Origin: Escherichia coli
Lineage (GTDB): Bacteria; Pseudomonadota; Gammaproteobacteria; Enterobacterales; Enterobacteriaceae
Strand: one strand, 5' to 3'
Assembly (NCBI RefSeq): GCF_003334305.1
Contig: NZ_QOWS01000015.1
Length of the DNA stretch: 64,000 nucleotides
This document shows positions 46,313 to 46,980 of the stretch, one piece after another; within the stretch, counting starts at the first letter, position 1, and the number at the start of each line of letters is the position of its first letter. A program made the position numbers and the translations under genes. Below the pieces are notes generated by a model. That model saw only the letters and a program-made list of their open reading frames with translations. It searched no databases and had not been told where the DNA came from.

Positions 46313-46655
46313 TCCTTCCTCAATCTTGAGTAACCCCGTCGTTGAAGGGTTACTCAATTCATCCTGATTATACGCACTGCCATGGTGCAACTGCTTCAAA
46401 TTAAAACTCTGGTCTGACTTCAAATAATTATCATATTATTTATTTGCGTAACGGGATATCAGAAAAAGATATTTTCCTCATTAATTTATTAGGATGTTTA
46501 CATCGGATTTGTGATTAAGCGTGGTATTATTTATTAGCGAAACGTTTCTCTCTTGATTTTTTGCTCATTCATCAATTTTTCTTATTTTAAATTTTCAATC
46601 CCTTTGGGGATTGACTTCTCTTTAGGGTAATTGATAGCCGTTAACTGACTGTTTT

Positions 46656-46724
46656 ATGAGAAAAAGTGATATAACTTTTTATTCATTGCATAGCAAAAAA
46701 TGTGATATTGCACGCACTATGTAA
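46656..46724 (+). CDS. candidate 22-codon small ORF (MRKSDITFYSLHSKKCDIARTM); possibly the small-protein gene yobI
   Basis: ATG 46656 to TAA 46722-46724 read from sequence in the AT-rich yebO-yobF spacer; no strong Shine-Dalgarno; identity with yobI is a guess. Confidence 0.25.
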   Translation: MRKSDITFYSLHSKKCDIARTM

Positions 46725-46980
46725 TAACTTCTCCCACTGGCCTGGAACAACTGAACTTATTGAACTATGTTAGAAACTACGCCAGTTTAAGTATCTGCCT
46801 GAACTGGCAAGGTTAAGCACAATGATATATCGGCGCGTATTCCGTTGCATAAGTGTGCAAAAAAAGTGGAAGACGTATCGAGATTTGTGCGTCTGATCGA
46901 GACATGTTTAAAAATGGCTTGCCATAATTAACGTTGTATGTGATAACAGATTTCGGGTTAAACGAGGTACAGTTCTGTTT

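Follow-up and report, generated by a model that had tools for sequence, protein, structure and literature searches.

The 668-bp spacer between yebO and yobF-cspC in Escherichia coli is a largely documented terminator-and-promoter region

We analyzed the gap between the yebO and yobF genes in a 64,000-nucleotide stretch of Escherichia coli DNA (hereafter the window) and found that its terminator and promoters have been mapped before: it separates yebO from the yobF-cspC stress operon as an ordinary regulatory spacer that is largely documented, with promoters already present in databases. We put the probability at roughly 85% that this is regulatory DNA separating two transcription units of the same orientation, with no gene of its own. 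The data behind this explanation are an RNA 3' end at the terminator, three transcription start sites and the pattern of sequence conservation.

All genes of the locus, mgrB (45807-45950), yebO (46025-46312), yobF (46981-47124), cspC (47137-47346) and rlmA, lie on the + strand of the window, and the spacer (46313-46980, 668 bp) is bounded by the end of yebO at 46312 and the start of yobF at 46981. Of 5426 complete E. coli genomes, 5424 have a match to the stretch of DNA carrying the locus, with identities of 95-100%. In MG1655 the corresponding locus is on the minus strand; the K-12 coordinate is given by 1954572 - x for window positions x > 46556; where x lies left of the single-nucleotide indel at 46556, the result is raised by 1. 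The spacer differs from that of K-12 at 6 positions, namely five substitutions and this one 1-nt indel. The mapped start sites and RNA 3' ends used below are K-12 data, and the sequence at those positions is identical in the present strain.

GC content is 35.5% in the spacer and 50.5% in the window; among all 668-bp stretches of the window, the one that begins at 46351 has the lowest GC content. According to the RefSeq annotation of a collinear strain that is 98-99.5% identical to the window, this spacer is also the longest annotated gap, the runner-up being mntP-yobD with 428 bp. An earlier, sequence-only reading of this DNA had picked out the region as an AT-rich spacer of 668 bp, the longest in the window, and its coordinates, AT-richness and gap ranking all agree with ours. 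The curated MG1655 RefSeq record has no feature annotated between yobF and yebO.

The last 240 bp or so of the spacer is the true control region of yobF-cspC. The sequence-only reading had expected the yobF-cspC promoter and leader to be in the spacer, and this was borne out: three start sites on the coding strand have been published, two of them in RegulonDB. It had also proposed dRNA-seq as a check, and the published dRNA-seq data give starts at 46952-54, 46932-35 and 46776-78. The three promoters, P1, P2 and P3, all have hexamers of the sigma-70 type that are correctly spaced before the mapped starts and lie at a fixed distance to the gene.

P1, the main yobF promoter (46919-46955, + strand), has the hexamers TTGCCA-17-GATAAC and a start at 46952-55. 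This start was found by SMRT-Cappable-seq at K-12 position 1907617, as the 5' end of a yobF-cspC unit that reaches the cspC terminator (Yan 2018), and by dRNA-seq as a class I start at 1905642-44 that is known to RegulonDB (Romero 2014). The promoter hexamers reported by Shimada 2014 are the same TTGCCA-17-GATAAC, and P1 is nearly invariant across 27 genera. P2 (46899-46935, + strand) was recognized in a consensus scan as GAGACA-18-CATAAT with a TG extension. Its start at 46932-35 is the class I start RVS-1905664 of Romero 2014, which is not marked as known in RegulonDB, and P2 is about 90% conserved in 79 loci. The -35 hexamer of P1 overlaps the -10 hexamer of P2, and the two are overlapping core promoters, for which published assays report binding of sigma-70, sigma-S and sigma-54 polymerase. 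P3, the distal promoter (46743-46778, + strand), consists of a -35 TGGAAC at 46743-48 and a -10 TATGTT at 46766-71 with 17-nt spacing, followed by a start at 46776-78. This is the class I start RVS-1905820, already in RegulonDB (dRNA-seq, Romero 2014).

RegulonDB/EcoCyc list promoters named yobFp1 and yobFp2; the starts at 46952-55 and 46776-78 are already recorded there, the names presumably belonging to these two sites, and TTGCCA-17-GATAAC matches the published promoter. A 2026 paper gives the promoters of the operon as yobFp1, yobFp2 and cspCp8. The Cappable-seq supplement has no entry in the spacer interval. In sigma-S ChIP-seq, which gives the P1 start at 1905641, a peak lies over P1/P2 and covers 46812-47049 of the window, and an RpoN SELEX peak was reported at the yobF-cspC core promoter. 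We also compared the P3 block by eye with sigma-54, sigma-32 and sigma-E promoters and rejected all three, because the spacing or the -10 was wrong or the element was not conserved; the outcome of this comparison is a lead only. CRP SELEX placed yobF among the CRP targets. As a side observation, one stretch of the spacer (46698-46719) and, in Klebsiella, the counterpart of a conserved box 134 nt before yobF (described below) look like candidate CRP sites; both are leads only.

Transcripts from P1 have a 26-nt 5'UTR (46955-46980, + strand) with the Shine-Dalgarno sequence GAGG at 46964-67, and this leader is invariant across the family. CyaR and OxyS were reported to pair with or regulate the short yobF leader, and its Shine-Dalgarno region is their published target. 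The arrangement of yobF-cspC, a core promoter followed by a cold-shock-gene-type mRNA, is like that of cspA-family mRNA leaders. Rfam RF01766 (cspA thermoregulator) matches 46961-47421 with 135.7 bits against a gathering threshold of 78, and likewise in 10 other genera. This likeness is predicted by the model; of the spacer, the match takes in no more than the final 20 nt, and the stretch that aligns to the cspA 5'UTR is here the translated yobF ORF.

We then compared the spacer across the Enterobacteriaceae using 80 loci obtained with YebO as the query, 79 of which matched the spacer. The last 100 bp or so of the spacer was about 90% identical in the 79 loci, and the remainder could be aligned only within Escherichia (75-78%) or in patches in Citrobacter/Salmonella. 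Nine E. coli strains have 37 variable sites in 46313-46807 and zero in 46808-47140. When the 260 bp ahead of yobF were aligned across the family, three islands stood out at fixed distances from the ATG: the core of P1/P2, a 14-bp box and the -10 block of P3. The P3 block, TTGAGCTATGGTAAAAA, is present in 71 of 77 loci, at 212-236 nt (median 222) upstream of the yobF ATG. Between the islands the sequence cannot be aligned; nevertheless, its length is kept. As judged from these alignments, conservation of the spacer across the Enterobacteriaceae centres on the promoter blocks, together with the 14-bp box and a module farther upstream.

The same set of loci raised the question of a lost gene. In 32 of the 80 loci an ORF for an MBL-fold protein of 331-335 amino acids stands directly after yebO, that is, between yebO and yobF, and the E. 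coli spacer is unusually long, as it might be if it were a decayed MBL-fold hydrolase gene lost from E. coli. We consider this very improbable. The best tblastn match of the MBL protein to the spacer had E = 0.5, and genomes that bear the gene retain, ahead of yobF, some 520 bp of non-coding DNA in which the same upstream module is found, which shows that the long non-coding region is independent of the MBL gene.

At its other end, the first 50 bp or so of the spacer is the yebO terminator (46328-46361, + strand). Its stem is formed by GAGTAACCC (46328-46336) and GGGTTACTC (46347-46355), and both arms vary little when four Escherichia species are compared. Term-seq located the primary RNA 3' end of yebO at K-12 1908212/13, which corresponds to about 46360-46361 of the window, in all three growth conditions (Adams 2021). 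The cspC terminator likewise has a Term-seq 3' end. A read-through unit, yebO-yobF-cspC, that starts at the yebO promoter at 1908567 was also detected by SMRT-Cappable-seq (Yan 2018). The mgrB-yebO transcripts stop at about 46360, with some of them reading through into yobF-cspC.

Between the terminator and P3 lies a filler of about 380 bp (46361-46740) that is AT-rich (28-32% GC) and fast-evolving; Escherichia species share about 75-78% identity in it, and outside them most of it cannot be aligned. H-NS binding has been reported here: genomic SELEX flagged the spacer as containing H-NS sites (Shimada 2014). The same study saw several RNA polymerase binding peaks and described 'multiple promoters within the 670 bp spacer'. 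On the opposite strand, a minor antisense start at 46423 runs back toward the yebO 3' end (FWD(II)-1906174 in Table S2 of Romero 2014). This start was TAP-enriched and had no step in transcription, and a -10-like GATAAT is found 5 nt upstream of it. On the K-12 forward strand, the intergenic probe showed a preference for sigma-S polymerase in in vitro transcription. Initiation in the middle of the spacer, including that near 46423, is weak or cryptic, and we infer that H-NS silences it and that the stretch serves as a silencing and insulating buffer, perhaps also as a landing pad for other factors. It is not wholly functionless filler, since the blocks at 46536-46551 and 46847-46860 are conserved. 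Direct repeats within the spacer were limited to short two-copy matches that are specific to E. coli.

In these properties the spacer is like H-NS-silenced AT-rich intergenic regions of the mngB-cydA type, which share its low GC content, multiple RNA polymerase peaks and H-NS SELEX site, as well as spurious sense and antisense starts and a rapid turnover of sequence. It differs from them in that it also has deeply conserved islands, and H-NS binding here comes from a published in vitro screen.

The filler holds the two elements that the sequence-only reading had singled out, a 22-codon ORF and a perfect hairpin. The ORF (46656-46724, + strand) exists as described and would encode MRKSDITFYSLHSKKCDIARTM from an ATG start. 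That reading had suggested a small-protein gene, and we weighed whether the ORF could be such a gene that has escaped annotation. The 81-nt stretch with the ORF was matched in 5414 of 5426 E. coli genomes, eight of the nine E. coli strains sampled keep the frame open, with one synonymous change and one K-to-R replacement, and the read-through transcripts from yebO span it. However, a 2-nt insertion in E. coli CV601 shifts the frame, and in three other Escherichia species recovered from a scan of a genome collection the frame is destroyed: codon 3 is TAA in two of the species (loci L003 and L005), E. albertii has ATA in place of the ATG start, and the comparison also shows a 1-nt indel within the ORF. 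The frame is thus not kept in related genomes, the very test that the sequence-only reading had named for it.

Other features of the ORF point in the same direction. It has no Shine-Dalgarno sequence, as none of GGAG, GAGG, AGGA or AAGG occurs in the 20 nt before the ATG (AGCCGTTAACTGACTGTTTT), and it lies upstream of all mapped promoters of the downstream operon. The spacer contains four ATG-started ORFs of at least 22 codons, about the number in dinucleotide shuffles (mean 4.4). The peptide MRKSDITFYSLHSKKCDIARTM was not found among roughly 15 billion predicted proteins in a protein collection, and the ORF is unannotated in curated MG1655. The nucleotides that are conserved across the ORF stretch, GTTAACTGACTGTTTTAT and the GTGATAT motifs, are kept regardless of reading frame. 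Taken together, comparative evidence argues that translation from 46656 can be excluded, and a real small-protein gene at this place seems to us extremely unlikely; the ORF is best seen as a chance by-product of AT-rich sequence and not as a gene.

The hairpin, CAATCCC-TTTG-GGGATTG at 46596-46613 (+ strand), is likewise present as the sequence-only reading had noted, and its stem is 8 bp long when T46595 and A46614 are counted (46595-46614). If functional, it could be an RNA element, either a stabilising stem at a 5' end or the intrinsic terminator of a short RNA begun upstream, for example from the extended -10 TGgTATTAT at 46522-30. Its position just 3' of the conserved upstream module would suit such a role, and a lax terminator scan flags it, with its 8-bp stem of 4 GC pairs and the tail CTTCTCTTTA. 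But there is no run of three or more U directly 3' of the stem, no RNA 3' end was recorded at the hairpin in any of the three published Term-seq conditions, and no mapped start site is nearby. Its folding energy of -12 kcal/mol corresponds to z = -1.7, and a perfect 8-bp stem with a loop of 3-8 nt arose by chance in 10% of spacer shuffles and occurs 25 times in the window.

Comparison among genomes also speaks against an element here. The hairpin is absent from the three other Escherichia species (L003-L005), and within E. coli there are uncompensated polymorphisms at 46600 and 46608; because these two positions vary yet are not stem partners, the stem is broken in 4 of the 9 sampled strains. 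The 51-nt stretch around it is hypervariable, with a megablast match in only 3448 of 5426 E. coli genomes, 1779 of them exact. An Rfam search gave a match of the hairpin to a CRISPR repeat (RF01338, CRISPR-DR25), which we rejected, as it reached 22.1 bits against a gathering threshold of 36 (E = 0.4) and the sequence is single-copy in the window. A functional RNA element at this site is, in our estimate, hardly credible, and the hairpin is a chance, non-conserved inverted repeat, a by-product of the AT-rich sequence as the ORF appears to be.

Downstream of the filler, one RNA 3' end called for an explanation. After the yebO terminator, the sole Term-seq 3' end within the spacer is an orphan at K-12 1907716, or 46856 in the window (Adams 2021). 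It appears in the second table only, which we took to be LB at OD 2.0 (stationary phase), whereas the tables for LB at OD 0.4 and for M63 have no coding-strand 3' end between 1907479 and 1908212/13. The orphan end had 264,852 reads, 5.7 times the 46,490 of the yebO terminator. It was also kept in the 5'UTR list of Adams 2021, the filter of which requires an upstream start site. The P3 start and this end together predict an RNA of about 80 nt (46776-46856, + strand), which would be a P3 transcript or an attenuated leader; its start and its end were each taken from a different study. The end falls inside the 14-bp conserved box GCATAAGTGTGCAA (46847-46860), located 134 nt before the yobF ATG. 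The family consensus of this box is GCATAAnTGTGCAG; about 60 of 77 loci have it, 132-134 nt ahead of yobF.

The role that we infer for P3 could take two forms: it may yield a long-leader mRNA, or it may take part in interference or attenuation that produces the RNA ending at 46856. A distinct stationary-phase RNA of about 80 nt made from P3, acting as an sRNA or arising from attenuation or interference that tunes P2 and P1, would account for the class I start at 46776-78, for the abundant 3' end seen in a single condition, and for the fact that P3, the box around the 3' end and the spacing between them are kept across the family. However, there is no terminator structure at 46856, neither a hairpin nor a U-tract, and the RNA from P3 to 46856 folds no better than shuffles (z = -0.4). 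Between genera the RNA cannot be aligned over its body, and RNAalifold with 37 sequences of the P3 leader found only an invariant 4-bp stem and no covarying structure. Rfam, searched at a permissive threshold over 45000-48000 and at the gathering threshold in 10 other genera, returned only cspA over yobF-cspC, so that no family covers this RNA in any genus. The 46856 end could also be a decay intermediate of the read-through mRNA or of a long-leader mRNA. We regard a dedicated P3 product as rather unlikely. The RNA itself may be a small RNA, a decay intermediate, or a product of attenuation or interference.

The second conserved block within the spacer is found far upstream of the operon. It is a palindrome of the LacI/GalR type, AGCGAAACGTTTCTCT, at 46536-46551 with the core GAAACGTTTC, and it is the part best preserved in E. 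coli of a family-wide far-upstream module that consists of the palindrome, TGCC..GGCA, GTCAT and TTTCATTATTTTGGTGCA. In E. coli this module has degenerated, and Klebsiella and Raoultella lack it. The exact 10-mer core is present in all Escherichia, Salmonella and Citrobacter loci, and the palindrome itself is invariant in the nine sampled E. coli. A match to the palindrome with at most 3 mismatches was found in 64 of 77 loci as against 5 of 1540 shuffles, at a distance of 384-586 nt from the yobF ATG (nearly all at 390-480).

The palindrome is identical at 15 of 16 positions to AGCGAAACGTTTCGCT, which lies 14-29 nt before the rbsD ATG in K-12 and which we take to be the RbsR operator of the rbsDACBK operon. 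Like the rbsD palindrome, it has a central CG and the core AAACGTTT. It differs from the rbsD palindrome in standing about 445 nt from yobF with no adjacent mapped promoter, and in most genera its right half reads TTTTTAT or TTTTGCT. From its 16-bp palindromic form and central CG, we consider 46536-46551 a candidate RbsR-operator-like site.

Searches for a transcript or an RNA structure around the palindrome gave little. No mapped start site lies within 100 bp of it, and a candidate promoter nearby matched at 8/12 and was not called by the scan; there was no consensus-grade promoter. RNAalifold with 39 sequences of the upstream module showed no conserved structure or covariation, an explicit count of pairs in the TGCC/GGCA stem was no better than in shuffles, and the module had no Rfam match.

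As a fallback, the sequence-only reading had allowed for an unannotated RNA or regulatory element in the spacer. Our analysis moves this suggestion away from the hairpin and the ORF, where no unannotated RNA was found, to other places, namely the P3 transcript to 46856 and the boxes at 46536-46551 and 46847-46860, where it finds some support. It is possible, if doubtful, that the spacer carries an undescribed control of the CspC operon, with two candidates for it, the far-upstream RbsR-type module and a stationary-phase RNA driven by P3. If so, the RbsR-type module could tie yobF-cspC, or a cryptic transcript of the spacer, to ribose/nucleoside status, and the RNA that stops at 46856 in the -134 box could be an attenuation/interference device or a small RNA.

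The flagged ORF and hairpin are noise and of little importance, but the locus matters biologically. Its product CspC acts globally as an RNA chaperone, and CyaR/OxyS target the yobF-cspC operon, which several sigma factors bind. The operon was also described in a 2026 paper as a hotspot of adaptive IS insertions in ageing colonies. If the conserved blocks and the 46856 end prove functional, they would add an extra upstream layer of control to the operon, a modest, specialist-level advance.

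The yebO-yobF spacer holds a far-upstream module at window 46536-46598 (alignment A3), which is kept across the Enterobacteriaceae and was present in 64 of the 77 loci compared. Its parts follow in the order of an RbsR-operator-like palindrome, CGAAACGTTT, then TGCC..GGCA, GTCAT and finally TTTCATTATTTTGGTGCA, and the palindrome is the main part left in E. coli. We also noticed a 20-nt direct repeat (46434-46453 and 46525-46544), with copies 90% identical and 91 bp apart, the second of which runs into the palindrome's left half; this repeat is not conserved beyond E. coli.

The content of the interval differs among genera. 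An ORF of 331-335 aa encoding an MBL-fold hydrolase lies between yebO and yobF in 32 loci (for example 3308-4303 of locus L009 and 3310-4317 of locus L029), from Lelliottia, many Enterobacter, Kosakonia, Buttiauxella, Cedecea, Leclercia and Phytobacter. The interval is without this ORF in Escherichia, Salmonella, Citrobacter and Klebsiella, and no remnant of the hydrolase was found in the E. coli spacer. One contig, L011 (CACSKA010000003.1), titled 'Chryseobacterium sp. 18061', showed a typical enterobacterial yebO-yobF-cspC arrangement. The project that produced it also includes 'Citrobacter sp. 18056' (L020), whose locus is closely similar; the L011 assembly is probably mislabelled or contaminated. 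In the natural isolates KMi029 (L093) and 361 (L094), IS1 either sits within yobF, at its 3' end, or is linked to a deletion that runs from about window 46381 to pdeD, with loss of yobF-cspC-rlmA-mntP-manXYZ. These events resemble the IS hotspot published for ageing colonies.

Observations on the minus strand concern window 46423 and the spacer as a whole. Published dRNA-seq places an antisense start site at window 46423 (minus strand), directed into the 3' end of yebO, and a K-12 forward-strand intergenic probe was reported to be transcribed in vitro preferentially by sigma-S polymerase, as was an ORF antisense to cspC. Many records of E. coli and Shigella include, under the name 'hypothetical protein', a 68-aa ORF at window 46813-47019 (minus strand), antisense to the yobF start and the promoters; its apparent conservation extends to Lelliottia and Buttiauxella. 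This conservation merely reflects that of the promoter and yobF DNA.

Closer to yobF, about 60 of the 77 loci have the 14-bp box GCATAAnTGTGCAG (window 46847-46860) at a constant distance of 134 nt upstream of the yobF ATG, and stationary-phase Term-seq reported an abundant orphan 3' end within it, at window 46856. A strong 3' end internal to yobF, at window 47093 (K-12 1907479), is listed in both the LB OD 0.4 and the M63 Term-seq tables; it lies 44 nt upstream of the cspC start codon. The downstream gene (window 47137-47346) is called 'cspE' in E. coli RefSeq/PGAP records versus cspC in the curated MG1655 record. It is the cspC orthologue, and the discrepancy is a naming inconsistency. The Rfam cspA thermoregulator model covers the entire yobF-cspC mRNA (window 46961-47421, 135.7 bits), and thus the part that corresponds to the cspA 5'UTR is taken up by the translated yobF ORF.
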